This document shows positions 40,101 through 61,456 of a stretch of DNA of 64,000 bases, piece by piece. The stretch spans positions 32,001-96,000 of IMG/VR virus record IMGVR_UViG_3300032286_001377. The stretch is one strand, 5' to 3'. The first letter of the stretch is position 1. Every line of letters starts with the position of its first letter. Source of the DNA: a virus. Both the position numbers and the translations under genes were made by a program. The notes beneath the pieces are model-generated. The model had not been told where the DNA came from and did no database searches. It was given only the letters and a program-made list of their open reading frames with translations.

Positions 40101-43100
40101 CCATAGTCTGAGCCAAATAATATCGCAAATTCATCTTGGGCGCTATTATTTCCTGCCCCAAAGTACTTAAATGGATCATTAACATCTTGACCAGATATCA
40201 TGTTACTAAATTCTGGTGGAAATTCTTCTTCTAAATCTGGATCTAATCCATAAACATCAAAAAATATTCTTTTAACACTTTCATAGTTATGATATTCAGC
40301 CCTGAAATAGTCCCATATATCTTGCGCTTCTCTATTTGTTCTACCATTACCGGCAATAACGCTAACGCTAGTGTCAAAATTTTCGTCAAAATAACTTCTT
40401 GCCTGAATACTAACAATATCTGAAGGATCATAAACGGCAGAGAAGGACGTTCTTACATCCTCTGCTTCTCTCCTCTTTTTAAGCTCTTCTGATGTCAGAG
40501 ATGCAGTATCTTTATCTATTGCTAGTTGAAAATAACTTTTACCATCTTTAACATTTAAAGCATTTCCGCCAAACGCAAGAGCATCTATCGCAGATTGAAA
40601 TTCTGAATTATAGGGAGCATACCAATCAAAAACACTATTTGATTTACCTATTGCATTAACTACATCTATTGCTTCGCTGCCTATTTCTCTAGCAATATAA
40701 TCTTGTCCCTCATTGATTTTAAAATTTCCAAACCCAACTATATACATACTTTCACTTTCCGCTACAGTATCCAACTGATCTTCAGTAGCGGCATTTTGTA
40801 ATTTAAACTTATTAATAGGAAGAACTGTAGTGCTTATGACTCCGACTGGAATATCATCTGGAACAAATGAGAACATACATTCTTGAGGTATAGGTGCAGT
40901 CCTATATCCTGAATCTAGCTCTGCAAAAAATTTAATTCTATTAAAACCATTGACATTAAATGTCGCCTCATCTGCTTGTAACATTGGGAAATTCAATGCA
41001 TCAAGTGTAGAATCACTTTTCTCTAAAAGTCTTTTTGCTTCAGCAGAGGTATAAGTTATAACACTTAAATAGAACGCTGCATCGGGGGAGACTAAAGCCG
41101 ATAATTCATTGCCATCAATGTAGTTTGCATCAGAATTAGGAATAACGGCTTGAATATCTGAAGTGAGATTTTCTTTACCCCACATGAAATATGCTGGCTT
41201 GCAAACAACAGCTCTACCATTGTTAGGGTTATAGACAAGAACTTTACGTTTTTTATAATCTTCTGCAGTACCGTATAGATTAGTGAATCCATATTCTGAT
41301 TTAAATTTACTTAGTGTGGCATCGTCTGCTTCGCCAGAAGGATTGTATGGCCATTTCATAGCAATGTAGAATTGTTCATCTTCAGGAGTTTCTGGAGCGC
41401 CCCACTCTCGATATGTTAGCTCTCCATAATTGTCTTTTTGATATTCAAAACTAAATGAATCTGGATCATCATTAATCTGTTGAATAGATATATTACCACT
41501 TAAACCACCTTCAGACGTAAGACCTATCTGTGGTAGTGGCATAATAATTTTTTGATCCTCAATTTGAATAATGCCCTCTATCTGATCATAGAGCGGAGAA
41601 AAATCCAATGGTGAATCAAAGTTCACAGTACCCTCTATATCCCCTCCGACAGAGGGCATCAGTGAGAACTTAGTTTTTGCATAGAAGTCTAACTCTAAAT
41701 TAATAACATCATCTAAACCATGATAAGTATTAGCGTTAACCCCCTCTTGCAACACTACCCACCCCTGCCTCATTTTAACTGTGCTGGAGTTCTCTAATTT
41801 ATATTTTTCAGTTACCGTAAAAAATGGAAAACCATACCTTGGTGGCAAATTGCCTATCTGCTTGTGTAAAGTCTTTTGACTTTCCATAGTAGATTCTGTA
41901 AAGAAGGCCTCACTATTTGAAGCTTTCATGTCCCTAGTTATAATTGGAAGGTGAGGGCCAATGCCAACCATACCTTTGCTAACTGGAAGTCTTGCAGATA
42001 TTTTTGCTCCAGATTCTAAATCAAAATATTGATAAGCCTGTGGAGAATAAAAGTTAATTAATCTACCAGTAAAAAATTTAGTAGGAGAATAAATACCAGT
42101 AGATTCTGTTATCGCTTTTGAAACAGTTTGAAATGATTCATTAGGTTCAAATGACTGAAAGAACTTCGCGTAATCTGCCAAAGGATTACTATCCTTATTT
42201 ATTGTTTCTAAAATAGTATTTAGAACTTCATCTGGCCCTAGAGGTCTTGGCCCTGAAGAGGTTCCATCTTCTCTAGCTTTTTTCTCTCCAGAAAAACCAG
42301 TAGTCACTGGAACTACACCTGAAGTGTAAAGCCAATGTGGTTTACCATAGAATACGGTAGACCTATCCTCAAATGGGCGTACCGCAACAATATAATTAGG
42401 AAGTAATCTTGCACAAATTTGGAACATATCCCAAACAGTTCTCATATATGTTTGTGCCCTAAATGATACCTCGTCAAATCCTGGAAGATCATCATCAGCA
42501 TTAGGTGCAAGTATGCCCATTGTTTTAAAAATACTAGTTCCACCACGACCGCTCAACACTCCAAGTAGGCCAAGACCAGCAAGTGCGCCAGCAGCTGGGC
42601 CAGCTAAAGCTGCAGTTATGCCAGTCATACCAATACCTATCGCACCCTGAACAAGGCCCGACCTGCCCTGAGCTTGAATTAGCTTATTGGATGCTGTTAA
42701 GTTTTCAATTGTTTCTTTGGCTGAAGAATCATTTTGCTGATACTTTTCCATCAACTTATTATAGGTTATATCGGTTAACCTACCGAGATATCCTTCAGTT
42801 CTATCATTATATGATTCTTCGGGAACTAAAGATGATGCCGTAGACCAGCCATCATCAATATCCCCTCCCATGAACTGTGCAATTCCGAGACCGTTTCCAG
42901 CATAGATGTTTCTCTTAAATATCTCAAGATCTGTTTGAGCGCTGAAGTTAGCCCACAATTGTCCAATAAGAGGAACAATGCCACCTCTTAAATTTGAAGA
43001 AAATCCCTCTGGTACAGACTGGCCACCACCAATATAGGTGAATGCTGCGCCAACTTTTTCTCTAATCCCGGCATTTTTGGCTGCTTCATCAGGATTTAAT

Positions 43101-46100
43101 GGCTCATAAAGAACATTTCCAAAGTGTTTAATGCCAAACTTGTTTTCAGAAAAAATAGTTCCCCTAGTTGCATGAGCGAAAGCTTCTCTAGTTCTAGACG
43201 AACCCATAGACAGCAGTCTAACCATTAGATCTCTTGGCTCAGACATATACATTCCAGTGTCTACGCCACCATCTATTTTTCCACTATCGCCTTTTTGCTT
43301 AGTTGAGTTAATCACGGCACCAAGTTCAATCGCATCAGATTGAGCTGTAACTGTAACTATTTCTCCCTGCTCAACATTTGTAATAACACCATTAAATAAT
43401 GTCTGCAGGGAGTTAGGATTAGCTCCGTATCCACCCCTTAAGTGAACTCGTACTCCAGGCTTTAGTCTAATGTTAGCTATATCAACAATGTACTCATTTC
43501 TTAATCCAGATAAAACATTTCTGGACATATTAATAGCTCGCTCTACGATACCTTGAAGCCCCTCAGATAAACTTAGTGAGTCAGTATTCATAGAATCGCC
43601 ATCTGTAGAAAATATCGATGATGATTCTTTTTTTGTTAATTTAGAATAAAGATTAGAAAGTCTAAATATTAAAGTGTCACCCAAAAGGTCTTCAGAAGAT
43701 ACTACAGAAAAATCTATAATAGATTGTAATCCATAGAAATTATCAAACATTTTAACGCCAGCAAAATATCCACCCTCATCAATAAGCCACAACATATAAG
43801 TAGGGAAAGCTCTAATCATTCTTCCAGATATATCCCTATATCTAGTATCTACTAACATTGTCTCCCAATGAGTATATGCATTCTTGTTATGCGGTTTCTG
43901 ATATCCTGACAAAGGAGTCACTCCACCAACTCCGGTAGTAGACTGTGTTGTGCCTTTATCTGGGGTTTGGGTATCTTCAATAAGATTAGCTTTAAGCTTA
44001 TAACTAGATGTATTTGACCCACTGGTTACATTATCTCCAGCCAATGTTAAATAGAATCTTCCAGTAGTCTTATCAATATATCCAAAATGAGTACCCAATG
44101 CTGTATGCATAATGGCGGGCATTCTGTTCGGTGATTCATTATTGGGATCAGAAGAAGGAATGATAAATATCTGCTTATGGAAATCTACCTCATCAGGATG
44201 AAAACTCACCTCATCCTCAACAGCAACCACTTGTTCGTTGCTATCATATATTTGCTGATTATACTTACCTTCTAATGCGGCCTCTATTGAAGATAGCATC
44301 GCATAGTCATTAGGAGACACGTTTCCTACTTGATATGACGCAGGATTGACTTCCAGCATAAAAAAGGGATCATCCTCACCATTAGCTGGGTCTAAAGATA
44401 TAAAATCAGTTAAAAGTTTTAGTTCAGTATCTTTATTGGCTTTACTTTCTTCTCTATTTATAATTTTATAAAAAATTCTAACAAAATCTTTTTTAGATAT
44501 ATTTTCAACTTTAAGATAATCAACCATCTGATCCAATAAATCAGCATTACTTCGAAGTGTGGCGGAATCGTTCGGATCTATATTATAAAGTCTTATAAAA
44601 TCTAAAATTTTATTTGAGATTTGGCTTTCTTTTGCAGCCCTAGCAGGGCCGTCCATTCCATCCATTCCAGTCAAACTTGGATCTTCAAAATAATAATCTT
44701 GAATTTTTGGAGTCTGATCAGTAATGTTATTGATAACATCATTGTCAAACATTTCAAAACTTCTAAAGTAGAAATCTGGATCTAGACATCCTACAGTTTC
44801 ACCTACGTCATTTTTAATAAAAAGTGGAAAATCCGGATAAGCATTAAACGATCCCCAGAGCTGCTTTATTCTTAAGAATGGATTCTTCTTAGTTCCAAAT
44901 TCTTCAACCAATTGCGCCTGTTGTCTGCTACTTAATTCTTCTCTCTTTTGTTGGAAGATATCAAAATCTATCAAAGTAAGCTCAACATCATATATATGAG
45001 GAAAATTAGGCTTAGTGCTTACATTATAAGTGAGCGGCATTACATACTTAATACCAGCTAAAGCTGTTATAATATTTTTAATCCCTAGAAATCCAATAAC
45101 ACCGGAGGCGTGTTCTAATCTAGCTAAGCCAGAGATGTGATCAAAAAGACTTCTAAATTTGATTAACTCTTTTTCGCCAACAACAGTCATTGATATATTT
45201 ATAAAGCTATCTTTACCGCCAATATGCTGATAGGTTGGCTCATCTTGCATCTGGACTTGTAGCTTAACAAGATTATTTGCCAAAGAAACAGTAACACCAT
45301 TAATAATTACTGCCTCTGGATCAAGATCCATTCTCACCATTGGAACTTCCCACTCATTAAATTGGAAAGCCCCTGTTCGTGCTCTTGCAGCTTCCATTAG
45401 CGATTGAATTGGTCCACTCTGGAAGAATCTCTGATATATAGCTACATTAAATGCGCGTGAAACTTCACCTTTGACCGTATCTCTATCTGGATATTTGCCA
45501 TTTCTATAATATTGATCATTATATTGCTTATCTACTAGATAATTTAGATACTCCTGAGGATTATTGGAAATAGCTTGGAAACCTCTTTTAATTGAATTTA
45601 AAGAAGTACTATCAATAAACTTTCCTTGAAAGCGATATAATTTTGTTTGCGGATACTGAGTTGTATCCGAATTTTTATTCTTTAACCACTCTTTTTCTTC
45701 ATCAGTTAAAGTATTCTCTCCAATAAAATTAGCAATCAAGAAATCGTAAGACTTATCTTCCATTGATTGAGAGTTAGATCCGGCGGTAATCATGTTTATT
45801 TCATCTAATATAATCTTATTAATAGATTTTGAATAAGAATTATTCAATGAAATATCAATAGTTTCCGCCAATGAAATACCATAAGAAGCTGTTTGATTAA
45901 TATCAATACCGATAGAATTCAGCAACCCCTCCCATGCAGACTGTCCAAGATCGGTAAACATCTTTTCTTGCTCAGTTCTAAATGAAGAGGTACTAGGAAG
46001 AAATAGTTTAGTCTGAGATTCGGCGGGTGCAAATAAAGTTAGGTGATTGCCATCTTTCCATTGATCAATAATATTTGTGGTAAGTGTTCCAGAAATTACA

Positions 46101-48139
46101 TCATCTGAAGCATTAGTTGTTGGAGCAGGTGGCGGCGGAGGAATATAGGCAGTATCTCCAGGACCAAGCGCTCCCACAGGGCGATACTCAAAACCATTAT
46201 AAACAACCTGATTAGAACTTAAATTGGCATCTTCGATAGTAGTTTGACCAGTTTGATCAATCTCCTTTACATCAGAAGTTTTTAATAAAAATTCTTCATT
46301 AACATATTGATTAAGCTGACCAGCTGCCTTACCCATATATTGTCTATATTTACCCCAATGTATAGCCTGATTAAAATCAGATATCATCGGTAGAAATGGT
46401 TTGTGATTATAGTTAAGCAATTCTAGATCTACTGAAAGTGCAAAAGGGAAATTTGGTATAGTTGAAATAGTCATATTGGCTAAACCGACTGCTGTAATAC
46501 CATGCACCGAGTTAAGATAATGGCTCTTTACCGGAAGAATTGGCGAATATTTAAAGGCTGCAATGAGACCTCTTAAAGATGATAAAAATTTATCAACTTT
46601 TTCTTCTGAATCGCCATTCATTTTAAAATCAATTTTGAATTCTTCATTTAATTTCAACGTAGCTGCATTATCTATTGATATTCCCCAAATCTCTTCGTAG
46701 TTAGGGAAAAATAATCTCATTCTAATTGTAGTTTCACGATATCCAGAATTAAACTTTGGACTATTCTTTTGACGAATAGCTCCAGGCATCATCGATCCAG
46801 CTTTAAAAGATGAGTTTACATCTATGGATACTGGAGGAACATAGAAATTAGCGGCTCCTAATCTTAGATGAAATATATCCGGATTTTCTGGAGAAATATT
46901 TGGTCTAAAAGGAGACTTTCTAAGAACTTCTTCTATTCTTTTTGATGTCTGCATACCTCTAAAAGCCAAGGTAAAAGAAGCTTTTCCATCGGCACCAACG
47001 CCGAATGCCCTTTCTAAAGAATCAAGAAAAGCTTCCTCATTATTAACTATATCCTCCTGTCCACCACCTTTTCCATAATTTGAATAATCTCCAACTAAAG
47101 CTAGCGCATCAAAAATAAAAGTAACTAAACTTGGAAAATAATAATTTAGATTGGCAAAGAAGATAGAATCTCTTTTTAAAAAAGTTATAATTTCATTAAG
47201 CAGTAAAAGCCATGGTGTGTCAGCAGTTTCTGAAATTGAATCAGCTGCAGATTTTTTTATAGTAGCAAGATTTGCTGTTCGCCTTTTTCCATAACTAGCA
47301 ATATCTGCTGCATACCCGGCGAGCGTTAATATTCCTATTTCTTCCATTTTCTGAAAAAGAGAATTTGTAGAAGCATTGCTTAATCCACCCGCTTCGGCAG
47401 GATTGATTACTGCTGCATTAACTTTTTGAAATACTCTGAAAAAAGAATTAGTCTGAGCTGCTGTGGGATCTCCATTAGGGAATGCTGTTGCATAAATATC
47501 ATAAAAGTAACTTCTATCTACTGAATCATATTTAGAACCAAATGATTTTGCATAGAAGGCGAGAACATTTGCTTCACCGACAATACTAGGAGTAAGATCA
47601 ACCGAACTAGTTACTGGATTCTCAGATTGAGCAACTACTTCTTGAGTAATAAGTTCATCTATATTGAATTCAACGAATTTACTACCGAGATAGTAGTCTC
47701 TCCAAATTTTCAACCGCAAAGATGCTCTAACGCCATACACTCCAATTGATGCACTATCGGTGAAGATATAGCGATTGTTATAAAAGTCAGACCTTACTTC
47801 AGCTAAGGTAGATGGAGTAATGTTTCTATTATAAGAAGTCTTTACTTTTGAAATATAAGCAGAAATTATAGCTGGAGATATAATTGGATCACTAACAAAT
47901 ACTGATAAGCAGGCGTTAATAGCATCTACTGCGAACGCATCATTTTCATCGAGCTGAATAACCTCACTCCCGGTAAACCCATAAAGATCGGGGATATCAG
48001 AGGTACCATTAATGAATGATAAAAGATCAGATTCCTTATATGGAACATCCAGCATATAGAGCGCGAATACTTTATTATACAGAATATCCGCGCTGACAAA
48101 GTTAACTAGGAAACCTTTTGTAGTGTTATTTATCGACAT
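37115..48139 (-). CDS. Giant baseplate hub-like protein with C-terminal thermonuclease (SNase) domain
   Basis: 3674 aa; hub motifs LKPGVRVHLRGGYG...LFNGVITNV and GELLVIGNGDIRPHDLVYL...GIFEVEQVIHHF...GFITSI; SNase motifs VLDGDT, VRFDGINAAE, LNWELVVNNLAKV. Confidence 0.7.
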   Translation of the reverse strand: MSINNTTKGFLVNFVSADILYNKVFALYMLDVPYKESDLLSFINGTSDIPDLYGFTGSEVIQLDENDAFAVDAINACLSVFVSDPIISPAIISAYISKVKTSYNRNITPSTLAEVRSDFYNNRYIFTDSASIGVYGVRASLRLKIWRDYYLGSKFVEFNIDELITQEVVAQSENPVTSSVDLTPSIVGEANVLAFYAKSFGSKYDSVDRSYFYDIYATAFPNGDPTAAQTNSFFRVFQKVNAAVINPAEAGGLSNASTNSLFQKMEEIGILTLAGYAADIASYGKRRTANLATIKKSAADSISETADTPWLLLLNEIITFLKRDSIFFANLNYYFPSLVTFIFDALALVGDYSNYGKGGGQEDIVNNEEAFLDSLERAFGVGADGKASFTLAFRGMQTSKRIEEVLRKSPFRPNISPENPDIFHLRLGAANFYVPPVSIDVNSSFKAGSMMPGAIRQKNSPKFNSGYRETTIRMRLFFPNYEEIWGISIDNAATLKLNEEFKIDFKMNGDSEEKVDKFLSSLRGLIAAFKYSPILPVKSHYLNSVHGITAVGLANMTISTIPNFPFALSVDLELLNYNHKPFLPMISDFNQAIHWGKYRQYMGKAAGQLNQYVNEEFLLKTSDVKEIDQTGQTTIEDANLSSNQVVYNGFEYRPVGALGPGDTAYIPPPPPAPTTNASDDVISGTLTTNIIDQWKDGNHLTLFAPAESQTKLFLPSTSSFRTEQEKMFTDLGQSAWEGLLNSIGIDINQTASYGISLAETIDISLNNSYSKSINKIILDEINMITAGSNSQSMEDKSYDFLIANFIGENTLTDEEKEWLKNKNSDTTQYPQTKLYRFQGKFIDSTSLNSIKRGFQAISNNPQEYLNYLVDKQYNDQYYRNGKYPDRDTVKGEVSRAFNVAIYQRFFQSGPIQSLMEAARARTGAFQFNEWEVPMVRMDLDPEAVIINGVTVSLANNLVKLQVQMQDEPTYQHIGGKDSFINISMTVVGEKELIKFRSLFDHISGLARLEHASGVIGFLGIKNIITALAGIKYVMPLTYNVSTKPNFPHIYDVELTLIDFDIFQQKREELSSRQQAQLVEEFGTKKNPFLRIKQLWGSFNAYPDFPLFIKNDVGETVGCLDPDFYFRSFEMFDNDVINNITDQTPKIQDYYFEDPSLTGMDGMDGPARAAKESQISNKILDFIRLYNIDPNDSATLRSNADLLDQMVDYLKVENISKKDFVRIFYKIINREESKANKDTELKLLTDFISLDPANGEDDPFFMLEVNPASYQVGNVSPNDYAMLSSIEAALEGKYNQQIYDSNEQVVAVEDEVSFHPDEVDFHKQIFIIPSSDPNNESPNRMPAIMHTALGTHFGYIDKTTGRFYLTLAGDNVTSGSNTSSYKLKANLIEDTQTPDKGTTQSTTGVGGVTPLSGYQKPHNKNAYTHWETMLVDTRYRDISGRMIRAFPTYMLWLIDEGGYFAGVKMFDNFYGLQSIIDFSVVSSEDLLGDTLIFRLSNLYSKLTKKESSSIFSTDGDSMNTDSLSLSEGLQGIVERAINMSRNVLSGLRNEYIVDIANIRLKPGVRVHLRGGYGANPNSLQTLFNGVITNVEQGEIVTVTAQSDAIELGAVINSTKQKGDSGKIDGGVDTGMYMSEPRDLMVRLLSMGSSRTREAFAHATRGTIFSENKFGIKHFGNVLYEPLNPDEAAKNAGIREKVGAAFTYIGGGQSVPEGFSSNLRGGIVPLIGQLWANFSAQTDLEIFKRNIYAGNGLGIAQFMGGDIDDGWSTASSLVPEESYNDRTEGYLGRLTDITYNKLMEKYQQNDSSAKETIENLTASNKLIQAQGRSGLVQGAIGIGMTGITAALAGPAAGALAGLGLLGVLSGRGGTSIFKTMGILAPNADDDLPGFDEVSFRAQTYMRTVWDMFQICARLLPNYIVAVRPFEDRSTVFYGKPHWLYTSGVVPVTTGFSGEKKAREDGTSSGPRPLGPDEVLNTILETINKDSNPLADYAKFFQSFEPNESFQTVSKAITESTGIYSPTKFFTGRLINFYSPQAYQYFDLESGAKISARLPVSKGMVGIGPHLPIITRDMKASNSEAFFTESTMESQKTLHKQIGNLPPRYGFPFFTVTEKYKLENSSTVKMRQGWVVLQEGVNANTYHGLDDVINLELDFYAKTKFSLMPSVGGDIEGTVNFDSPLDFSPLYDQIEGIIQIEDQKIIMPLPQIGLTSEGGLSGNISIQQINDDPDSFSFEYQKDNYGELTYREWGAPETPEDEQFYIAMKWPYNPSGEADDATLSKFKSEYGFTNLYGTAEDYKKRKVLVYNPNNGRAVVCKPAYFMWGKENLTSDIQAVIPNSDANYIDGNELSALVSPDAAFYLSVITYTSAEAKRLLEKSDSTLDALNFPMLQADEATFNVNGFNRIKFFAELDSGYRTAPIPQECMFSFVPDDIPVGVISTTVLPINKFKLQNAATEDQLDTVAESESMYIVGFGNFKINEGQDYIAREIGSEAIDVVNAIGKSNSVFDWYAPYNSEFQSAIDALAFGGNALNVKDGKSYFQLAIDKDTASLTSEELKKRREAEDVRTSFSAVYDPSDIVSIQARSYFDENFDTSVSVIAGNGRTNREAQDIWDYFRAEYHNYESVKRIFFDVYGLDPDLEEEFPPEFSNMISGQDVNDPFKYFGAGNNSAQDEFAILFGSDYGGGGGSSSSNPSKDYSEAIEFMRKNYIDAPLDEGGLLSYFNNIFSKNLAKIYESFFAGESVLSVLHFSIEASNKDDNAVIDVSDILKKNIKTPKQLFLLMVGLFRQRLWEDPYARAWLVLKPDKKAGWFSADDGWSFKPVDKVFRAYIDPNSDYAKPSKKAKFLQLLVSTRGEGNSSNTYFSEVVSDVSEFASRTIGPIVSAVGDALSGLISMFKTTMQQLGYALSEVGNFKKQANILNKALNDSIYYSLGRPGTLLRAVDNPFTREYGEPVVEIREPFQRIHYISSFSHILSNQIQENLNNVATQITAVSDGKYPVTVALDKGAPAERQVEKTVETGLYFDNIVGSGFTGFLHPLMHPMETFRGVAKAIQGAPDELSARRVALSHLKESIKDIYGGELLVIGNGDIRPHDLVYLSDVYERMYGIFEVEQVIHHFTPELGFITSITPNALVTVNDPARWFMTSWMQSWMHVQNVRNDARIYIDNIRNANSGLSFGGNISVDRLGEILTTQIVGGFQFTHGSSALVKDIMANQTAMIAPGVNSSLLNAAGQEEGGGVPTFAIMAQVLPGIGQLVWKGWKWVRDNVLDQHGCYVQYLNKNGQPMDAGLSYNQGMVVGQHHSKALLPGILGTRVKARTPEGNSFIRSDDLFKSLGWNEVAINDIYRHISYESALVHAQVLKLSGLGPEKAGFEWQFRVICQVNSVLDGDTIDVTDIISGVNFRVRFDGINAAETNTIQGTVDYPSSTNPTNLSFLDISTPGGKAKVFVKKALENKLIVLRINQTRTEGSNAIGGKAVLEQDFEAGSQLNTIQNYQLDIFGSGDRENEGDVTGSRVMATIFYYLPQEKIDNILSYVANLFRSNLTALESIKDKLKNDIYDKSAFFTKFDSIFESVESIINDEYFNIQNDADSLYLLTDDQRKLYSRFVYFKVLEEIYDKASEWPRVSWDEYFPDGHPVTLNWELVVNNLAKVFVKDLQKESSSVIDANDSLPMPTSVSN

Positions 48140-48147
48140 TAGTTACC

Positions 48148-48588
48148 TTAAAATAATGAGTTATTTCTAATAATGTTAGATAATCTATCACTAGAGGAAT
48201 TTTCAGAAGTAATAGAACTGTAATTATTCATTATACTATATTTGTTATTTGAAGTAAATGATTTATTAGAAAAAGAATGACTATTATTTGAAATATGTTT
48301 ATCACTAAATCTAGCTATCTGATTTTTCTTTGAATCATATCCAACATTCTTAAACTGCAAAATAGTACTTGAACTGGCATGATAGCCTTCTAATGATCCT
48401 CTAGGAACTTTTTTTGTTTGCTTAGATGCTTGACCGCGAGATTCAGCTAAAACTTGCTTATTCGTCATCTTGGATGAAGAGATTTTCGCAGAATACTTTT
48501 GAGAATCAGCGTTACGAGAAGATGTATCTTTTGGTGTTTTACCGGCTTCGCTTAAAGATTTATTCTGATCAACAATATTACCAATCAT
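48148..48588 (-). CDS. Small basic Ser/Asn/Lys-rich hypothetical protein
   Basis: 146 aa ORF filling the gap between two large genes on the same strand; low complexity. Confidence 0.6.
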   Translation of the reverse strand: MIGNIVDQNKSLSEAGKTPKDTSSRNADSQKYSAKISSSKMTNKQVLAESRGQASKQTKKVPRGSLEGYHASSSTILQFKNVGYDSKKNQIARFSDKHISNNSHSFSNKSFTSNNKYSIMNNYSSITSENSSSDRLSNIIRNNSLF

Positions 48589-48600
48589 CTAATTCCAATC

Positions 48601-51600
48601 TCAATAAGACGACGCCAAAGAACCATAAGGATTACGGCCAACATCAGCAATCCTGTTATACATAGTAGTGGAAATATTACCGTTAACGAGTCCACCAGCT
48701 TGTTTGTTAAATTCTGAAACTGATTTCCTATCACCATATAAAGATACATTATAATTTATACCAGGATTATACCCACCCATATCTGGAGATCCAAGATTCG
48801 GGATCCTAGTTGGCATCCCACCTTCATAGGCTGAACCTCCAGGCAATAACGGTGGACCAGACATGTCATCATGAGTCCTATTCTTATAGGCCTTATATGC
48901 AAAGCTACCAACTATTAAAGCTGACATGCCAATAAGTCCTTTCTTCATTCCAGGACTACTAATTAAATCAAAATATTTGCCACCTTCTTGAATATCCTTA
49001 AGGGCAAATCTTTTATATTTTGCGGGAGTAAACATAGTTGGAACTGCGGACTCCCCTATGCCAACAGATTCAATCATTTCTTTTTCAATACGAGCAAGAT
49101 CTGGAGCACCGACTGTTTGCGCTAAGTCTGAAATAGTCCCTTGCGCATCAAGCCTCTGAGATACACTAGCTAAATCTTCCGCTACATCAGAAAAAGGAGA
49201 TTTGATCCCTTCTGCAGAAAGTCTTTCGTATTCAAGCCTAGCTCTTACAACATCCGCTTGCTGAACAGCTTGTTGACGGGCGGCATTATCAGTTATCTCA
49301 GAACTTCTTTCCGAAAGAGCCTTCAATGTATTTGACTGAAGATCCGTCAAAGTAGTACCAGAACCTGGAGCTATCAATGCGTCAGCAACATCTTTAAGAT
49401 TGTCAGCTTTAAGTTTATTAGCTGGACCGTGACCCATAATTGACAAAACACTTTGTGCATTGGCTTGATCCAAACTACGAAGATGATCCAATCTTCGCAA
49501 CTGCCTATTTGCCATAATATCAAAATGTGTCGCAGCCGCCGTATCACTCATGGAATCAACGCCTACTGCTTCTGCGACAAACCTTAACGCACCAATATCA
49601 AAACCGGCCTCTGCACCAAGTTTATCCAAAGCGTTAAAAAGACCTTTCTTTTCAACACCTGAAACCTGAGAAGCTGCATGGATATCACCAAGAACATTTT
49701 CTCCAATCTGATTTATCTTAGCAGTCCAGTTATACAACTCTAAAGCCGAACCCTCCTTCAGAACCTTAGATGTCATTGCTGAAACGGTAGCTAGATCTTG
49801 TCCGTGCTTCTGAACAATATACCTAGCTAAAGAATCTTCTGCCACAGATGACTGGGCTAATGCAAGCACTGGATTAGATTTTAGGCCAGTAAGCCCCTTT
49901 TTTCTTATAGTATCTAAATATACATCAGTCTGCCTTGCCAGATAATCTAGTTTAGATAAACTAGCAAAAGCGTGATCTCTAGAGAGAGCAACATTTTTCA
50001 TTAAAACATCTTCTATTTGTTTATCATCTCCAACTAAAGCCTTTTTGTACTGCTGCAACTCTGCTTCAATATCGGCCCTAGCTGCTACAGCTTGAAAAGC
50101 GCCAGAAGAAGTGCCTTGCATAGCATCTTCCATTCCGGCAATAATATCTTCCAAAAGCCGTTGTCTATCTCCAGCGTTCATTTTATTCTTAAGAAGAAAT
50201 TCGTCAATCCCGGCAATGGTGTTCTGATTTGTGGAACCAATAGCTCTAGTAAAGCCAATTCTCCTTCCAAGAGAAGAGATTGCAGCTTCGCCAATCGTAT
50301 TCAAACTCACGGCAGATTTTGTGCCAGCTGTTTTATATAAATCAAGAATCGCCTTACTAACTTTAGTTTCATCCAAAACTCCCATATTGTTAGTAAGATA
50401 TTGTTGAACTCCAAGATTGACAGTTTTAGAAGTAGACAAGTTAACTGTTAAGTCAATGCCTTCTTCCTGAGCAATCAGACCTGCACTATAATTTATATTC
50501 TCTGGATTTAAAAGATAGTCACGCACAGATTGGCTAGCATTCTCCAGAAAGGCAGAATACTGATCCAGTGTTGACCCAACAATCCCAGATCTATTAACAT
50601 ACATTCCAAGGTTGCCGGAATTTTGTTCTATTTTTTTCAAAGTCATTTTATCTAACGCCGAAGCAATCAATGCGCTAGATTCTCTACTGTCGGAATGATT
50701 CGCCAAGACCTCTAGCATAGAGTTGAAATCAGTAGCGGAACTAAGGCTTGATCTTAATTCATTGCTGATATTAGGTGATGCAAGTAAGCTTTGAATATCT
50801 TCTGACATATCAAACTTCGCACCAGACTCTAAAAATGCCTTATATACACCTCTTTGAGTATACTCTGGTATAATTTTTTTTCCAGATTTATCAACCAAAT
50901 CTGTTAACATCAAAGTAGAACTACCCGACTCAGCGAACCTGGCCATTCCTTCTCTAGTTAAAGTGTATGAATTTCCAACTCTTTCAGATACTGCCACAAT
51001 AGCTGACTCAATTTCATCTGGATTTTTTATTCGGAGAGTTCTATTTCCTTTTGTTGGAGTGAATTCTATAACATCTTGCAACTGTGCGAATTTTGCTGCA
51101 TCAGCGCCAGTAATATTATTTTGAGCATTTTCTTGCATGATGGCTGCTAATGCATTTTTAAACCTATCATTACCAAACATACTTTTGATTGATTCTTGGT
51201 CCATATTCATTCTCATAAAAATAAATTCTTCTGGACCTGATGGTTGACGGAAAGATAGAAATCCAAGTCTTTTCATTCCAGCGCTATCTTCAAATGTAAC
51301 AGTTCTTGCTATACCTTTATCGTCTAGGTCGAATCCACCAAGAGAGTGATGGAATTGACCAACAGCTATATTAGGAATAAACATTGTATGACCTTTAATT
51401 CTAAACTTTAGAGCATCTGTGGACATCCTGTTTCCGCCACTTCCAAATAAATCTAAAGTCTCAAAACCATATGAACCATTTCTGCTATTTCCTAAAAGAT
51501 ACCCTGCATCCGTGGTGCCCATCAGTCCTCTTTCGGTATTGATGGCAAACCTATGTGTCTCAGGAAGTGCTGGCTCAAAAAAGGACACACCGTTACCATA

Positions 51601-53586
51601 TCCTTTTTCTTTGAAAGCCATAGTAGCAGTTGCTGTATGTAGCAAACTCATCAAATATGGAGAATCCTTTGGACTGGCTCCAGAGTGGAGCATGTCCATA
51701 ATAGATTGGGCAAACTCTTTATTTCTAGCTCCAGAAAGTCTCTTGCTCACTGGAAGAGATTCAATATCAGCGGATGCCTGATATTCTAACATTTTTCTTA
51801 ACTTTTCCGGAACAATTCCACTTTCAATCGACTCTCTGAATTGTTGAACAACCTCATCTTGATTTCGTTTAATTATATCTATGCTTCCAGGATCAGTGAA
51901 AAGTTGAGCATTAAAAGCTGCAGCAACGGGATCTACATAAACAGTTTCATTTTTTCTACCAATACCACTTAATATAAGACTTTCTATATCACCAGCTATT
52001 CCAGATTCACCCTTTACGGAATGTCTGCTTATAACCATTGCGTAACCTTCAAGATTTGGATCAAATTTACTATCTAATCCAAAAGCGTTTTTGATATTAA
52101 GAAACCTATCCACTGCTCCAGTATAAGTTCTTCCTCTGCCAGTCACCTGAGAATAATCGCCAGATGAAAGTCTGGCTATTTTATCATCTAACTCACTCAT
52201 TATCGCTAGAGCTTTTTGCTTTTTGTGCGCATCAGAAGTAGATCCAAGCTGTGTGGCTATATCCTTTTTTTGAGCTCTTAATTGAGCTATGTATGTATTT
52301 AAGAATTTTTTATTCATTATATCTGCACCATCGAAAGACTTTTCAATACTCTCAAAAAGACCTTCAATAGCTGCAGAACGAGTAGCAGATCTGCTAGGAT
52401 CAGAAACAGCAAAACCTGCTTTTAAATGCTCTTTAAGTTCCTTGCCTAAAAATTTGTTTCCAGTACCACCAGGAAAATTAGTTATTGCTTGTTGAAGTTC
52501 AGATGTCTCAGATTGAGTAAGTGCATTTTCGGTAAAACTACCTAAAATACCTCTAACCTCTTTATCTGCGTTCATGCTCTTATAATAGGCTTGCAAAGCT
52601 TTATTGCCATCAAAATTATAATGTCTTCCATGAGCAAACTTTTTCAAAATTTCATATTCAGGATCAACAAATAAAGTTATATCCGATAACCTGCCTGATT
52701 GACCTAGTTTTGATTTAGTGCTTTTAGAAAATTTTTTAACCAAATCAGAGAGTTCATCTCCGGCCAAAGATATCTCTCTTGGGGCCAAATATGCTCTTTG
52801 TCTCTTTCCTATTTTTTCTACCATTTTAGCCAAAGCTTCACCAGTTCTTTCGCCAGTTGAACTAGGCCCCAGAGCATCAAGAAGATCTCCTTCATCATAA
52901 AATCCGTGACCGGTCATTGATAAAATAAGATTTGTTTGATATGTATCTAAAGATTTTCCACCATTAACTAAACTCAATATTCTCGCACCTTCATCGTCTG
53001 GCATAACAATTCCATCAACCATTCCAGATTGTTGCATTCTTTGAATTTGAGCAATTAACTCTGATGGAGAACCCTTCTTCTCCATTGTGTAAAGTCTTAG
53101 TTCAAGGTCTGAAAGATCTCCAACATTTATATTCGCTTTTCTTAAAACTTCTAAGTCATCAGAAGAAAGACTCCGCAGCTTTGTATGCATGTCTTCAAAT
53201 ATATTTCTTGCCGCACCATAGTTATCTGAAGATCGCGATGCTCTTTCCATGGCTTTACTTAAAGAGTCTGGAACGAAAGAAGTTCTCTTTCCAAAAACTT
53301 TTACATCAGCGATAGCCATCTGATTCACCTCATCGACGGCGTCTTCCATTGTATCCATTTTTTGACCTGTTGTGGCTATAACAAATTTAATCTTAGAACC
53401 AGGATCTGTTGACTCTGGTTCCAGTTTAATAAGACCACCTCTACCGTATGGAGTAAGTTTAAGTGCAGCTTCTGCTGCAGACATCCTTTTAGCTAAAGTA
53501 TCATAAACTGTATTCACATTAAAAACAGGATTACTCAACCGTTCTCTTTTGCGAAATTCTCTAATAACATCTTTAATATCTCTCAT
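48601..53586 (-). CDS. Tape-measure-associated protein; candidate single-chain two-barrel virion RNA polymerase
   Basis: 1661 aa; motifs FDG, QVTGR..IK, HSVK, GGFDLDD, RQP, NLGMYVN, QEEGID; C-terminal TM segment; ATGA overlap with the tape-measure gene. Confidence 0.55.
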   Translation of the reverse strand: MRDIKDVIREFRKRERLSNPVFNVNTVYDTLAKRMSAAEAALKLTPYGRGGLIKLEPESTDPGSKIKFVIATTGQKMDTMEDAVDEVNQMAIADVKVFGKRTSFVPDSLSKAMERASRSSDNYGAARNIFEDMHTKLRSLSSDDLEVLRKANINVGDLSDLELRLYTMEKKGSPSELIAQIQRMQQSGMVDGIVMPDDEGARILSLVNGGKSLDTYQTNLILSMTGHGFYDEGDLLDALGPSSTGERTGEALAKMVEKIGKRQRAYLAPREISLAGDELSDLVKKFSKSTKSKLGQSGRLSDITLFVDPEYEILKKFAHGRHYNFDGNKALQAYYKSMNADKEVRGILGSFTENALTQSETSELQQAITNFPGGTGNKFLGKELKEHLKAGFAVSDPSRSATRSAAIEGLFESIEKSFDGADIMNKKFLNTYIAQLRAQKKDIATQLGSTSDAHKKQKALAIMSELDDKIARLSSGDYSQVTGRGRTYTGAVDRFLNIKNAFGLDSKFDPNLEGYAMVISRHSVKGESGIAGDIESLILSGIGRKNETVYVDPVAAAFNAQLFTDPGSIDIIKRNQDEVVQQFRESIESGIVPEKLRKMLEYQASADIESLPVSKRLSGARNKEFAQSIMDMLHSGASPKDSPYLMSLLHTATATMAFKEKGYGNGVSFFEPALPETHRFAINTERGLMGTTDAGYLLGNSRNGSYGFETLDLFGSGGNRMSTDALKFRIKGHTMFIPNIAVGQFHHSLGGFDLDDKGIARTVTFEDSAGMKRLGFLSFRQPSGPEEFIFMRMNMDQESIKSMFGNDRFKNALAAIMQENAQNNITGADAAKFAQLQDVIEFTPTKGNRTLRIKNPDEIESAIVAVSERVGNSYTLTREGMARFAESGSSTLMLTDLVDKSGKKIIPEYTQRGVYKAFLESGAKFDMSEDIQSLLASPNISNELRSSLSSATDFNSMLEVLANHSDSRESSALIASALDKMTLKKIEQNSGNLGMYVNRSGIVGSTLDQYSAFLENASQSVRDYLLNPENINYSAGLIAQEEGIDLTVNLSTSKTVNLGVQQYLTNNMGVLDETKVSKAILDLYKTAGTKSAVSLNTIGEAAISSLGRRIGFTRAIGSTNQNTIAGIDEFLLKNKMNAGDRQRLLEDIIAGMEDAMQGTSSGAFQAVAARADIEAELQQYKKALVGDDKQIEDVLMKNVALSRDHAFASLSKLDYLARQTDVYLDTIRKKGLTGLKSNPVLALAQSSVAEDSLARYIVQKHGQDLATVSAMTSKVLKEGSALELYNWTAKINQIGENVLGDIHAASQVSGVEKKGLFNALDKLGAEAGFDIGALRFVAEAVGVDSMSDTAAATHFDIMANRQLRRLDHLRSLDQANAQSVLSIMGHGPANKLKADNLKDVADALIAPGSGTTLTDLQSNTLKALSERSSEITDNAARQQAVQQADVVRARLEYERLSAEGIKSPFSDVAEDLASVSQRLDAQGTISDLAQTVGAPDLARIEKEMIESVGIGESAVPTMFTPAKYKRFALKDIQEGGKYFDLISSPGMKKGLIGMSALIVGSFAYKAYKNRTHDDMSGPPLLPGGSAYEGGMPTRIPNLGSPDMGGYNPGINYNVSLYGDRKSVSEFNKQAGGLVNGNISTTMYNRIADVGRNPYGSLASSY

Positions 53587-56500
53587 CGCACTCCAGCAGA
53601 AACGCTAATTTGTTGCGAGCCGAATGGAGTACTCACAGGCGTAATGGTTCCAGTAACCCCGGTTCCAGCCATCAGTCTTTCCAATCTAGCCCTAATATCT
53701 CCTCTACTACTAGTACCAAAGAAATCTGGATAACTGGCATTTGCGAGATTTGCTTCCTTGATTTGCTGCGGATAATATCCCATTTGAGACATATCCAATC
53801 CCATATGCTGGCCTGTTTTAATTTTGACTTGATCTAAGTTAGTATTAGGATTCCAGCCTTCCCAATCTTCACTGGGGAGTTCATGACTAGTAAAGTATTC
53901 ATCCAAATCAGGAAGTTTTTCAACATCCATACCCCAAGCTGCTTCGTACATTCTTCTCTCAAGTCTTCCAGCGGTTGAAAGTATTTTTCCTCTTTCCTGA
54001 ACTGGTGCGTCCATCATTGCCTTAAAATGTTCTCTTTTACGTTTTGGTAAAGCGAATGATAGATTTTCAACATTAGGATTATCAATATTTGCACCATACA
54101 TGGTACGTCTAGCAGCAGATCTAAACTGAGTGGCAGCTGCCATATCACCAGAAGCTGAAGCCATATTAGCAAGTCGGGTGTTCTTAACATAACTTAAGAT
54201 ATCAGAATATTCCTCAAGAGCTAATTCTTCTTTCCTTTTCTTTGGAATATATCTTTCTCCAGAAATAAACTCCTGAACCTTTCCGCCAGTTGATGACAAA
54301 GCACCCGCTGCACCTCCGACAACAGTACCAAAAAGTTTTGCTCTTGGAGTTCTACCGAAAAAGGCACCCGTTGTTGCTAACGCTGCAGATGCAAGAAGTG
54401 GATTCCTTTGAGTACTTTCTTGCAACATTGGTTTAATGTAACTTTCTACCGGATTCTGCCATTGCGGGAAAGTAGTTCCATAAACGTTGCTTCTCTCCCA
54501 ATCCTCTAAGGCCGTTCTTTTTCCAATAGCTTTTGTTAAGATAAAGTTATCGGAGTGAGCTAGCATCTCCCCAATTCTTCCCATCCCAAATTTAATTGGA
54601 TGCATCGCAGCTTCTTCTGGGCTTGAATACTTATATTTATATTCAGAAAAATCATGACGTACAGTCGTATCTTCAGCTTGCTGTCTAATTGTAGCAACTT
54701 CGACTTTTTCCTCTGGAGTTAAAGCCTTTTTATTTATTAAAGAATTAACTCGTTTGAACTGCTGCGAATATGGTGCAACATCACCAAGAATATTTAACTG
54801 ATCTATTAATCCATATCTTCCAGTTTCATCTGGATGTAATTTATTAAATCTTTCATAAGCTACACCAGGAAGTCTTAATTCGCCTTCTTGAACTTTAGTA
54901 AAAGGGTCTCCAGTTCTAAAGTTCATATAATACTCTGCGCCAGGAAGCCATGGATTTTCTTTACCCATCCTATTTTGAATAGGATTTAAGTAATCTACAC
55001 CAGTTCTATCTTTTGGAATAAATCTTCTAACTATTTCAGAAAATTCAATATTACCAATACCTTCAGATCCGCCAATTGGAACGTCACCTAAACCACCAAG
55101 ATTTAAATCCCAGAATGCTCTAGATGAGCCATAAGCTTTACTAGCAGACTGTAAGACTGCTCTTTGTGGATCTAAATCAGATTTTCCAAAACCCAAACTT
55201 TCACGAGCAGATCCGAAAGCAAAACCATAAATACCTAACATTTCTTGAGCGCGATATCCTGCTTCGGTTGCTTGAAATTCACTTCTTCCCGGCATGAGGG
55301 GGGTTCCGGAAGGTACAATTCTAGGATTCATAACCTTAGAAACTTTAGGTGGACCATAGGCTAGTTGTGAATATCCAGAGTTTATGTCTGAAATCTTATT
55401 TCTTGTCATGCCTCTTGCCATAAACGTGCTACCGGCACGTGATGCCATATCACTATTGTATTGTCCTTGGTATCCGCCACCGCCAAATCCAGACGATCCA
55501 CCACCAAAGCCAAATCCACCTCCATATCCACCACCTCCATATCCGCCACCGCCGCCATATCCTCCGACTTGCGTGCTAGATGTATACGCAGTAGCATCAT
55601 ATGCTCCAAACTGACCTGCAGGAGCATAAGAAGCTAATCCTGCTGTTAATTCTTCTCCGTGCATGATCTTTTGTGGTTTTAGTATTCTTCCTAATGTAGC
55701 ATTTGCGATAGGCACGAGGGGTCCAAATGGGCCAGAAAAATATTCTCCAGTTACAGGATATGGTCTATCTTCATAATGCTTGCGTTCAAATCTATAAGGA
55801 TCTAATGGTCTCAATGGAGAAATATCATTATCGAACAAGAATTTTTCAGCCGGACTACCATATGTATCGCTGGTAAACATGGCTCCACCTTGAAGTTTTC
55901 GATACCAAGATGGGCGATAATACATAATCTTTCCGCCCTTAAAAGGAGTATTTCCCAATGGCCAGAAGCGACCTTGCCGAATTGGAACCTCTCCCTCAAC
56001 TAACTGTTCTCTTTTTTCCTGATAGCTCATTCCACCAGGAATAAGTCCAGCTGCAGCAGCGTGAGCTTCCACTCCAACCTTTGCAGCGGTGCCAAGAACA
56101 AGTGGAGAATATACCCTTTCTCCATTTTCATCTTTTTCATTGACCATTCCTCCCATTGTTCTGTCTATTGTCATAGCTGCGGTACCTGCCGCATATAATG
56201 GGAGAACTCTCTTTCCAGCCATTCCTCTAGCGAATAAATCTAGAGGACCATTAAACTTGGATACATCTAACTGCATACCTAAAGTTCCGAAGTACCTGTT
56301 TAATCTTTCTACACCCTGAGACGCTGGAACGCTAGCTAATGAAAATGATTCTGGATCAGAATAAGTTGTAAGCCCTAACGCACTCTTTATTGCGCCCTGT
56401 GGATTTCTTCCAAATACTGTACCAAAGGTTGGAACTAAAGTAGTATATTGTCCAGACCCTAATGGATCAGTAGTCATGCTATCTGGCCTATATGGAGCCG

Positions 56501-59500
56501 TTCCAAATGCTCTTTTAGCTGGCGTTAAAAGAGGCGAAAATCTTTTTCGAATCGATCCACCAATTTGAGCTATATCACCCTTAATGAATGGGTCATACAA
56601 ACTTTTTGCACCGGGCGCTGAACTCAAACCCATAGCCTGAGTAATAGCTAGACGGGCACTTTGAATGTTAGAGTCCCCCTGCTTATAGCTCATATAAGAA
56701 CTAAGATTGAAAAGAGTACCCAACCCAGCAGCTTGTGCTTCAGTTCTCTGAGCTGGACTAATCGCACCAGACTTAACAAGATCATCTACTGCTGTCTGAA
56801 TCTTTATAAAGATTTCATCTTTATTAACACTACCAGAAGTTAACTGATTTGATTGAGCAATATATCTAAAAATTTCATTTTTTAATTCATCATATTTAGT
56901 AGAAATAGTAGGAGATTTTTGAGCCATCATCGAAACAGCACTTAGGTCAGCCTCATCCATTAGTCTACTCATTCTGGAAGCTGAAGAAAGAATTGGTGTT
57001 GGATCTTGCCCTGACGATCTCAATTGCCTAGCTAACTGAGACTGAGTTTTTTCAATTTGCCTACCAAAATCAATTAAATCCTGATGACTCTGTATCTCAG
57101 AAACGCCTTTGCCTCTAAAAGTAAATAAATCTGGAGTCTTATCTTCAAGCTCTTTCATCAACTTAACTGGCATCCCGGCTTCAGATAGTGTTCTATCTCT
57201 TAATGACGAATACGCCCTTATTAAATCAGCCTCCTGGAATCCAGAGATTATATTATTAGATCTATCTACAAGAGAAATAGATCCATCCGGCATCGTGGTC
57301 AACCGTCCCGAAGTTTTAGCAGCACCTCTCGCTCCTGGTATTGCAATTTCTTCTCCAGCCAACAATCTTGACATAACTTCAGGATTATATGGATCATAAT
57401 TTCTTCTTCTAAATCGAGATAACTGACCAAAAATAGAATTAGGCTGATCTGAACTAACCGCCATTCTATCTCTAATCTTCAACATCCTATCTTGACCAGA
57501 AGGACTTAGTATTCTATTCAAAAAATTAGAATTTAATTCCTCCCTAATCTGCTCAGGATTCGCACCCTGCAGATCAGAGGCATAACGTGTATGCCTGGTC
57601 AGTAAATCCATAGCATTAGTCGGCAATGCGCGATAAGAACCCTTAAGAGTTTCACTAACTAACTCTCCAGTATTTTCATCAGTCCTAAAAGCAGTAACAG
57701 CGCCTTTCAATCCTTTAGTTCTATTGAACATATAGAAGTCAGGACGCACTGCCCCTTCTTCCAAAAATGGTTGCACAGATCTGGAAGAAATATATTGAAC
57801 AGATGGTCTTCTATACATCTCTTTAAAAGAATTGTATCCAACAAGATCTGTTGGATTAAAACCTAAAATAGGAATCTTAAACTCTGATGCTAAAAAGTTA
57901 CCAATACTAGACGCCGTTGACCTAAGAGCAGTGAAGTCAAGTATTTCACCACGACCGCTCTTATAGACGCCATCTAATCTACTTAAGCCTATTGACTTTG
58001 AAACAGGGTCCTGAATAGCCATTCTTCCAGCAAGCTGTCGAATGATGGCCTGGTCTTCATCGGGAATATGTTTGAACATTCCACGATCTTGCGCCTCGTC
58101 AATTGTAACTTGCTGTAATCCAAAAAGATTTTGACCACCACTAAAAACACCTGATGTCATCTTCTTATTCTTAATCAAGAATGCACGCAAATCAGTAAAA
58201 TTACTAGGATCTATACCACGATTTCTAAGCTGATCAAGAACCATATCATTGGTAACCATTTGACCATTTTGATGCGTCAGTTTAATACCTAATGTTTCAG
58301 CAGTTTTTCTCTGCATGAACTCTAGCTTTGCGTCGGTTGGCTCGCCAATGAAATCTTGATAAAGAGCTTTCTTTGGCTTTAAAATCCCGCCTGCAGCTTG
58401 ATGCAGATCTTCTCTTTGGAACTTATTCCAAGAATTTGCAATACGATTATTTAAACGCTTTTGAAACTCCGTACTAGTGAAAGCATTTCTTGATCTTTCT
58501 ATTGCATCAGCTAAAGCATCAGCGTTAAAGTTTGGATTCTCTACAAGATTTTTACTACCTTTTATTTGACTATATCTTTTGATTATCTGACCAAAAAAAT
58601 CTTCAGATTCAGACTTAGCTGTCGAACCCTGCTCTAATATCTGAGCTTTTCCAATAGAAACAATCTTAGTCATATCGCTAGTTGACCCAGGTATAGATAC
58701 CTCTAAATGCGCAATAAATCGTTCCGCGTCACGCTTATTGATACCTTTATTAATTAACTGTTTTTCAAGTAAATCTTTATAGGCGTCCGTTTGCATGCCA
58801 TTATTAAATTGGCTCTTAGCAAATGTTTCAGAACCAGGGCCTCCACCACCAAGTATTCTAATATCTTTAGCTAAATTAGACAATCTTGATGAGTGCTGAG
58901 ACTGAATCTTTTTAATAGATTCCGCTAAAGCATTCTGCCCATTATTGCCAGTAAAAATTCTAGAATTATCAATAACCTTCTTAAATGCCATAGGACTTTG
59001 CATGGCATCATAAGCCTCACCAAGGCCCTTAAATTCCTTTACGCCGACTGATATAGCAGAACTGGTACCCCTGAAGGCGGGAATGAGGTCTATTGCTGAA
59101 CCGTATTTTTGCTGTCCATCAGAATATCCTGTAAAAAGATTTTTAAATTGAGTCTTCCTCAACTCCGCTTTAGAGGAGTTGGTCAACAAAGCCTTCTCTT
59201 GAGCCTTATCCCACCCCGCCCTCAGGTTATGCAAGGTTTGAACAAAACCTGATTCTTGCGTTCTAAATTCAGTAGCGGCAGCATTGAAAGCGCCAGATGT
59301 TTGAGCACCTTTTTTCAAAAGTTTATTTGTCAGAGAAGCAAAATCGTGACCAACTTCAGCGAGAACTTCAGATACGTTAACAAAATTCTGATGGAGCTTT
59401 TGCCTAGCCGGTGTTAAACTTCTAATATCAGACTCTGCATACTTGAGTGTATGAATAGAACTTTTTAAAGTAGTTCCCGCCGCGCCTGCTGCCTCAAATG

Positions 59501-60224: not shown

Positions 60225-60237
60225 TTTAAAATCCTAT

Positions 60238-60867: not shown

Positions 60868-60869
60868 TT

Positions 60870-61400: not shown

Positions 61401-61456
61401 TATTATCTCCTAAAATATTTTTTTATTATACATGATATCAAAAACACATAATTTAA

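Follow-up and report, generated by a model that had tools for sequence, protein, structure and literature searches.

Does a large gene in the tail module of an uncultured phage encode an RNA polymerase (RNAP) that travels in the virion and starts transcription in the host? The question is raised by a gene at positions 48601..53586, minus strand, of a 64,000-nucleotide stretch of viral DNA (positions 32,001 to 96,000 of IMG/VR record IMGVR_UViG_3300032286_001377), which is called the window here and to which coordinates refer unless another locus is named. The product (P0001) has 1661 amino acids (aa), and its ATG lies on the stop codon of an upstream open reading frame (ORF) of 2213 residues (ATGA), an overlap that is present in the sequence as the original prediction had described. 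That prediction proposed a virion-delivered single-chain two-barrel RNAP with a non-canonical DxDD metal site, split from the tape measure. Phage RNAPs packaged in virions include those of N4, crAss-like phages (gp66), P23-45 (gp96) and phiKZ-like phages (vRNAP), and to our knowledge only a few lineages of virion-delivered two-barrel RNAPs have been described, namely the phiKZ-like multisubunit enzymes, crAss-like gp66 and P23-45 gp96. The precedent invoked for P0001 is a real one, as gp96 of Thermus phage P23-45 is an RNAP fused to the tape measure (PMC10770324).

Judged from the structural models, a two-barrel polymerase fold is highly probable for P0001. The protein is probably a component of the virion or tail, and the balance tilts modestly towards its being an active polymerase; for fold, activity and virion location to hold together, the chances are a little short of even. 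The best explanation, on which we place nearly even odds, is that P0001 represents a new, divergent branch of single-chain two-barrel polymerases, sited in the tail module, that would be ejected and would start transcription. Conservation, resemblance of the predicted fold and a fixed gene position are its observed basis, and catalysis, template type, packaging, ejection and the role in early transcription are what we infer.

The family to which P0001 belongs was delimited by a word-indexed search, which found 77 relatives, and by HMMER run exhaustively over 1.84 billion cluster representatives, which returned 167 clusters at E<=0.001; at 50% identity the family amounts to about 170 clusters. 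At least 108 IMG/VR loci carry it, on contigs of up to 268 kb, and a single copy is present in each of four complete relatives (209-268 kb, CheckV 100%). No relative was found in the 185,579 prokaryote genomes scanned, and tblastn against 50,697 deposited phage records returned nothing, with no cultured member among them. We regard the family as phage-only and undescribed, with P0001 as its founding example.

All seven sequence motifs quoted for P0001, recalculated from the translation, are at the positions claimed for them, and like all features of the protein given below they lie on the minus strand: SFDGADIM (aa 417-424, 52315-52338), QVTGR..NIKNAF (aa 480-502, 52081-52149), MVISRHSVKGE (aa 517-527, 52006-52038), TMFIP..GGFDLDDKG (aa 734-758, 51313-51387), FRQPSGPEE (aa 779-787, 51226-51252), NLGMYVN (aa 992-998) and QEEGID (aa 1040-1045). 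The residues at their centre are kept throughout the family or nearly so, far beyond what chance would give. In 44 full-length homologs D419, G420, K499, K525, L749-K757 (LGGFDLDDK), R780-P782, E787, G994, Y996, N998 and D1045 are invariant. In a more divergent set of 111 sequences, with 21-55% identity to the core, G750, D753, D755, D756, R780, P782 and E787 are conserved in 110/110, K525 in 109/110, K499 in 105/107 and D419 in 105/105, which upholds the expectation that the DG, both lysines, DLDD and RQP would be retained. Absolute conservation across such a range of identity is the signature of a catalytic site and not of a ruler protein. The unusual metal motif is likewise a property of the family, since in a census of 208 family proteins about 200 carry [FYM]-D-x-D-D and 0 carry DxDxD, and RQP follows the Asp loop at a constant distance of ~24 residues. 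Outside these sites, G48, G192, K258, K261 and R262 are kept in the N-terminal region (aa 1-403, 52378..53586). A resemblance of S520-R-H-S-V-K525-G to the beta/Rpb2 sequence SRHGQKG was set aside, as only K525 and E527 are kept in the family.

Two structural models were built, one of the whole region (aa 380-1150, 48 homologs; predicted local distance difference test score, pLDDT, 75.9; predicted template modelling score, pTM, 0.69) and one of the polymerase-like core (aa 404-860, 51007..52377; 57 diverse homologs; AlphaFold model m212244dc6fa6, pLDDT 91.0, pTM 0.86). The core model opens with the invariant D419-G420 (52327..52332), directly before a long helical hairpin (aa ~426-475). Next comes a first beta-rich domain (aa ~481-540, 51967..52146), with Q480/T482/R484, K499, K525 and E527, which is the candidate lysine barrel (double-psi beta-barrel, DPBB-B); K499 and K525 sit in its strands, and the range aligned to RDR2 begins at residue 544. 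A helical connector (aa ~553-654, 51625..51930), in a clamp- or neck-like position comparable to those of RDR2 and the P23-45 RNAPs, separates it from a second beta-rich domain (aa ~658-793, 51208..51615), the candidate aspartate barrel (DPBB-A), which carries R679, E685, F728-R729, the Asp loop and then the hairpin. Within the second domain the model runs from a helix to the candidate metal loop G750-G-F-D753-L-D755-D756-K757 (51316..51339), a strand, a predicted beta hairpin ending in the invariant R780-Q-P782 (51241..51249) and followed by E787, and a further strand, after which there are helices. The conserved L993-G-x-Y-x-N998 (50593..50610) lies in a helical region past the core, ~240 aa downstream of the Asp loop; in two-barrel polymerases a bridge helix and a trigger loop come after the aspartate barrel. 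In that superfamily two double-psi beta-barrel domains make up one active site, and the predicted order of candidate lysine barrel, connector and candidate aspartate barrel would be that of the single-chain forms. D753, D755 and D756 would most likely hold the catalytic Mg2+.

Structure searches pointed in the same direction at modest strength. With the whole-region model, Foldseek found nothing significant in the PDB; RDR2 (rank 1), phi14:2 gp66 (rank 4) and QDE-1 (rank 5) were among the weak top rows. The core model likewise gave nothing significant in the PDB, and a wide structure search with it was dominated by matches to the helical hairpin. In BFVD the core model matched three uncharacterised phage proteins (E 3.5e-10 to 5.4e-7) and then, weakly, segments of giant proteins of crAss-like phages. 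The long structural alignments (229-347 residues), which span both beta domains and the connector, are all to single-chain two-barrel polymerases and none are to lysins; essentially every long alignment among about 48,000 folds is of this kind, and each score taken alone is middling. As the family was predicted from motifs before the long alignments of the modelled fold were found to agree with them, the coincidence is hard to put down to chance. The Asp triad of RDR2 is 830-DLDGD-834, within an active-site loop at 828-836 (PMC8713982), and because the range aligned to RDR2 covers these residues, DLDD of P0001 (core residues 350-353) is placed on that loop, the alignment ending at the strand that follows it. 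DLDD thereby keeps the canonical order, and a circular permutation need not be invoked. The claim of a two-barrel polymerase core stands as regards the predicted fold and the conserved DG, Lys and DLDD residues, but finds no backing in motif spacing or profile comparisons.

The closest structural neighbours are cellular enzymes, QDE-1 of Neurospora (2J7N/7Y7P) and RDR2 of Arabidopsis (7RQS), with 11-15% identity to P0001. Unlike them, P0001 has no match to the Pfam RNA-dependent RNA polymerase (RdRP) family, carries DLDD where they have DLDGD, possesses an invariant RQP..E hairpin past the Asp loop, and is the product of a gene in a phage tail module, with a possible hydrophobic anchor near its C-terminus. 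This candidate anchor (aa 1550-1564, 48895..48939, GLIGMSALIVGSFAY) had been taken for a transmembrane segment. It is indeed the most hydrophobic 15-mer of the protein (Kyte-Doolittle 1.67), but it is short and stays <1.6 over a 19-residue window, so that a membrane anchor here is plausible from the sequence and not a strong candidate. With the tail that follows it (aa 1565-1661, 48604..48894, GPPLLPGGSAYE ... ASSY), it forms the best-conserved stretch of P0001; it is these last ~120 residues, and not the core, that are conserved most.

In some relatives the gene is split, into pieces of 660+938 aa (with the break ~35 aa ahead of the Asp loop), 257+1329, 1356+412 or 1120+591+325 aa (L064:8966-13802; L012:8872-13705; L075:8330-13589; L081:8234-14346; L047:8284-13749), and a separately encoded C-terminal anchor recurs among them. 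In L047 the upstream gene is fragmented too, and assembly errors are possible.

The surroundings of the gene place it in a tail module. The window belongs to a contig of 115.5 kb, estimated to be 55% complete, with all genes on one strand. Synteny was counted over 80 IMG/VR loci (L003-L082), with the block at 48148-62374 of the window, and the order 305 aa, 176 aa, 209 aa, 2213 aa, P0001, 146 aa and hub is collinear in 80/80. The 146-aa gene (48148..48588, minus), which is conserved and belongs to no known family, stands between P0001 and the hub in 70 of these loci and has no counterpart there in Bacillus phage 0305phi8-36. The baseplate hub, a protein of 3674 aa with a lysin segment (37115..48139, minus), forms the downstream edge of the block. 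Upstream of P0001, the 2213-aa protein (53583..60224, minus) is homologous over aa 1400-2190 to gp145 of 0305phi8-36 and its relatives (36% identity). A hydrophobic segment (aa 49-67) lies close to the N-terminus of this protein, a striking run rich in Gly and Tyr (GGYGGGGGYGGGGYGGGFGFGGG...) is found around aa 1590-1630, and the length is near-constant at about 2170-2310 aa in the loci examined. Two further proteins, of 248 and 224 aa (62376-63122 and 63196-63870, minus), match the PHROGs entry 'major head protein' (phrog_9206), a label also found in the Moorella phage annotation; synteny with gp140 (tail tube) and gp141 (tube paralog) of 0305phi8-36 makes a tail tube and a tube paralog the likelier identities.

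This layout bears on which gene is the tape measure. In 0305phi8-36 a sheath paralog, sheath, tube, tube paralog, gp142, two chaperonins, gp145, gp146 and the hub gp147 follow one another, and both gp145 and gp146 were detected in virions by mass spectrometry. Hardies et al. ascribed the role of tape measure to orf146, which one gene separates from the chaperonins, and noted that the alignment of orf146 with its counterpart is confined to the last 60 residues (PMC2147016). P0001 occupies the equivalent slot, one gene past the chaperone-like 176/209-aa pair and ahead of the hub. It has no Pfam or PHROG tape-measure match, and aa 404-860 are predicted to be compact alpha/beta. The upstream gene had been called the tape measure, for which the sole support was a set of weak tape-measure-named ESM Atlas clusters (0.77). 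Since that gene is a homolog of gp145, a virion protein, and P0001 lies in the orf146 slot, a split from the tape measure is doubtful; instead P0001 may be the protein of the tape-measure slot and carry a polymerase at its N-terminus, an arrangement like that of P23-45.

The proteins in the same position in other phages, gp146 of 0305phi8-36 (the 'hypothetical tape measure protein') and those of Acinetobacter phage ME3 and Moorella phage MTATph1, are large like P0001. A likeness seen by eye between the last ~50 residues of P0001 and gp146 was dropped, as hhalign and a C-terminal hidden Markov model (HMM) gave it no support. ME3_36 (L084:14376-19187) has 1603 aa, its start overlaps the stop of a gp145 homolog, and it contains MMGGDHDQDQ at aa ~1213-1222; this GG-DxDxD string is at a different relative position from the loop of P0001 and may be due to chance.

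Taken together, these data suggest a mechanism in several steps. The N-terminal ~1150 residues would form a QDE-1/RDR2-type fold, in which the first barrel would give K499 and K525 and, beyond the connector, a loop of the second barrel would give D753-x-D755-D756. The C-terminal ~500 residues, with the hydrophobic segment and conserved tail, would direct the protein first to the tail lumen or hub and afterwards to the host membrane. Translationally coupled to the preceding virion-protein gene, P0001 would be built into the tail and ejected ahead of or with the DNA, and it would then transcribe the first phage genes without the host polymerase, as gp96 of P23-45 does. Because the gene is coupled to a virion-protein gene and sits in the tape-measure slot, a tail-built, ejected polymerase appears the most likely mechanism. 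A bolder form of this proposal, in which P0001 fills the tape-measure slot of a contractile tail and is at the same time an active RNAP that is ejected, with D-x-D-D as the catalytic loop and the RQP..E hairpin completing the site, the only polymerase of these ~200 kb phages, starting transcription at the membrane during DNA entry, is tentative and somewhat doubtful.

Several observations weigh against a polymerase delivered from the tail. The defining residues of the superfamily are a DxDxD triad, carried by one barrel, and a pair of basic residues from the second barrel (PMC7824862), whereas P0001 has D753-L-D755-D756-K, three invariant aspartates differently spaced, the third one position early relative to canonical DLDGD. 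The survey filter for candidates was [RK]xP x{20,100} DxDxD (PMC10770324, Supplementary Data 4); P0001 has no [RK]xP upstream of the Asp motif, where F728-R729 (93/110) and R679 (105/111) are conserved, yet no Pro, and RQP is found 24 aa downstream instead. The RQP that had been equated with the canonical RxP is present and invariant, but its equivalence is uncertain, since it comes after the Asp loop where in all known families the motif comes before. The hairpin has the look of an addition peculiar to this family, and its conservation is as strict as that of the Asp triad. The published filter would have rejected the family. Nor did any sequence or profile method tie the family to a polymerase. 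Pfam and PHROGs, with which the neighbouring genes were likewise scanned, gave no match for P0001; phmmer and profile hmmsearch against PDB sequences gave noise, such as S100 and G-beta; and no ESM Atlas cluster above 0.80 was found for the core. Comparison of the family profile with known two-barrel RNAPs by hhalign did not bear out a relationship, with a non-significant E of 0.32 for P23-45 gp96, in which FRQPS is set against FRNPV, and nothing significant for P23-45 gp64, phi14:2 gp66 or 0305phi8-36 orf99. Fused forms longer than P0001 (2908-5000 aa) were looked for and not found, which is weak evidence. The placing of DLDD on the RDR2 triad comes from alignment end points. Its counterparts in other loci are 23-36% identical to P0001, compared with 40-75% for the neighbouring proteins and their counterparts, and P0001 is by far the fastest-evolving protein of the block. 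The same-slot proteins gp146, ME3_36 and MTATph1_27 have neither similarity to it by hhalign and BLASTP nor its D-x-D-D/RQP motif, and gene position is the only evidence for presence in the virion.

Some of these points would also suit other explanations. A two-barrel enzyme with a different job, such as an RNA-dependent RNAP, a primase-like or DNA-synthesising enzyme (cf. PolD) or an enzyme whose products are short RNAs or nucleotides directed against host defence, could use D-x-D-D for an altered chemistry; the nearest structural neighbours are RdRPs, one of which, QDE-1, takes both RNA and DNA templates, and the metal motif and RQP position are unlike those of every described transcriptase. 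We think this unlikely, since the phage has double-stranded DNA, the studied phage relatives of the fold are all DNA-dependent RNAPs, and placement in the tail module fits a function that is first in the cell. Less likely again is a tape measure or other structural protein of the tail lumen whose core is an inactive, exapted scaffold, its conserved residues serving metal-dependent folding, assembly or membrane insertion. This would account for the slot that is assigned to the tape measure in 0305phi8-36, for divergence as fast as that of tape measures, and for a C-terminal 120 aa better conserved than the core, which echoes the alignment of the last 60 residues of orf146. However, three Asp and two Lys, together with R780, P782 and E787, stay invariant through very deep divergence, as is typical of catalysis and not of a ruler, and tape measures are normally extended and helical, while the core is confidently predicted to be compact alpha/beta.

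The likeness to polymerases might instead be spurious and P0001 another ejected enzyme, for example a cell-wall hydrolase with a double-psi barrel (MltA/RlpA '3D'-like) or a metal-dependent hydrolase for crossing the envelope. Such a reading is improbable in view of long alignments that run over both beta domains and the connector and lead to single-chain two-barrel polymerases and never to lysins, and the hub already has a lysin segment. Most improbable of all is an active phage RNAP made late, remaining outside the virion and merely lying in the structural operon. In its favour, proteomic evidence of packaging and a cultured member in the phage collection are both lacking; the constant position between a virion-protein gene and the hub, the translational coupling, and the hydrophobic segment with its strongly conserved tail all argue against it, and in 0305phi8-36 both large proteins at these positions are virion proteins. 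A new branch of two-barrel polymerases ejected from the tail remains the explanation we prefer.

As such, P0001 would differ from each of the phage enzymes that it most recalls. P23-45 gp96 (8H2M/8H2N), from a siphovirus whose tail is non-contractile, has 5002 aa and carries FRNP ahead of a canonical DFDGD, whereas P0001 has 1661 aa and DLDD followed by RQP, in an uncultured phage of ~200 kb with a contractile-tail gene module. The gp66 of phi14:2 (6VR4), like the proposed P0001, is a giant virion-packaged single-chain two-barrel RNAP that ordinary sequence searches miss, and crAss-like giant proteins recur in the BFVD list; unlike P0001, it has a canonical DxDxD, comes from a podovirus-like virion, is not in a tape-measure slot and shows no profile similarity. 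YonO of SPbeta and gp99/orf99 of 0305phi8-36 are the phage members of the RdRP-like branch. The latter phage resembles the phage of P0001 in how its tail module is laid out and has a homolog of the gene that precedes P0001, but orf99 matches PF05183 (E 1e-20), has DTDGD and lies in the non-structural arm, while P0001 has no PF05183 signal.

The relatives of P0001 appear to have few other candidates for a polymerase. In the four complete genomes no match was found to Pfam Rpb1_2, Rpb2_6, T7-type RNAP, RdRP or sigma-70 region 2; PF05183, PF00623 and PF00562 are absent in the relatives, in contrast to the RdRP-family orf99 of 0305phi8-36; and the DxDGD pattern searched in the DNA of the four genomes matched at about the control rate. 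P23-45 has a non-virion paralog (gp64, the counterpart of P74-26 gp62, 8F5M), whereas the four complete relatives yielded no second polymerase paralogous to the first. One of these (G001) has a 1119-aa ORF (L096:4349-7708, plus strand) with a conserved HDTWDQDGD[MQ]A[RK]FI, which recalls the canonical loop NADFDGDQ, and G002 has an 898-aa counterpart (L098, G002:149490-151475; 36% identity). Pfam, PHROGs and the PDB gave no identification for this ORF. Its relatives in G004 are only weak ones, and none was found in the 115 kb contig of the window; it may encode a further polymerase of more canonical type, or it may be unrelated. Outside the window (G000:C1:15278-15406), a Sigma70_r2 match that is weak and does not reach the family cut-off (E 0.024, 11.7 bits) falls within an open frame of 290 aa among the non-structural genes of the contig, with no such match in the four complete relatives.

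The few virion-delivered two-barrel lineages known so far have each changed views of phage early transcription and of polymerase evolution. The family described here is large, yet invisible to Pfam, PHROGs and profile comparison, and its position questions which giant gene of 0305phi8-36-like phages is the tape measure. If D-x-D-D is indeed a catalytic loop, it would be the first natural departure from the DxDxD common to all known two-barrel polymerases, and, if the enzyme is active, a natural experiment on how much variation the universal Asp triad tolerates. An active P0001 would extend tape-measure-linked polymerases from one thermophilic siphovirus to widespread environmental jumbo phages with contractile tails, and could account for the onset of transcription in phages that lack a recognisable polymerase or sigma factor.

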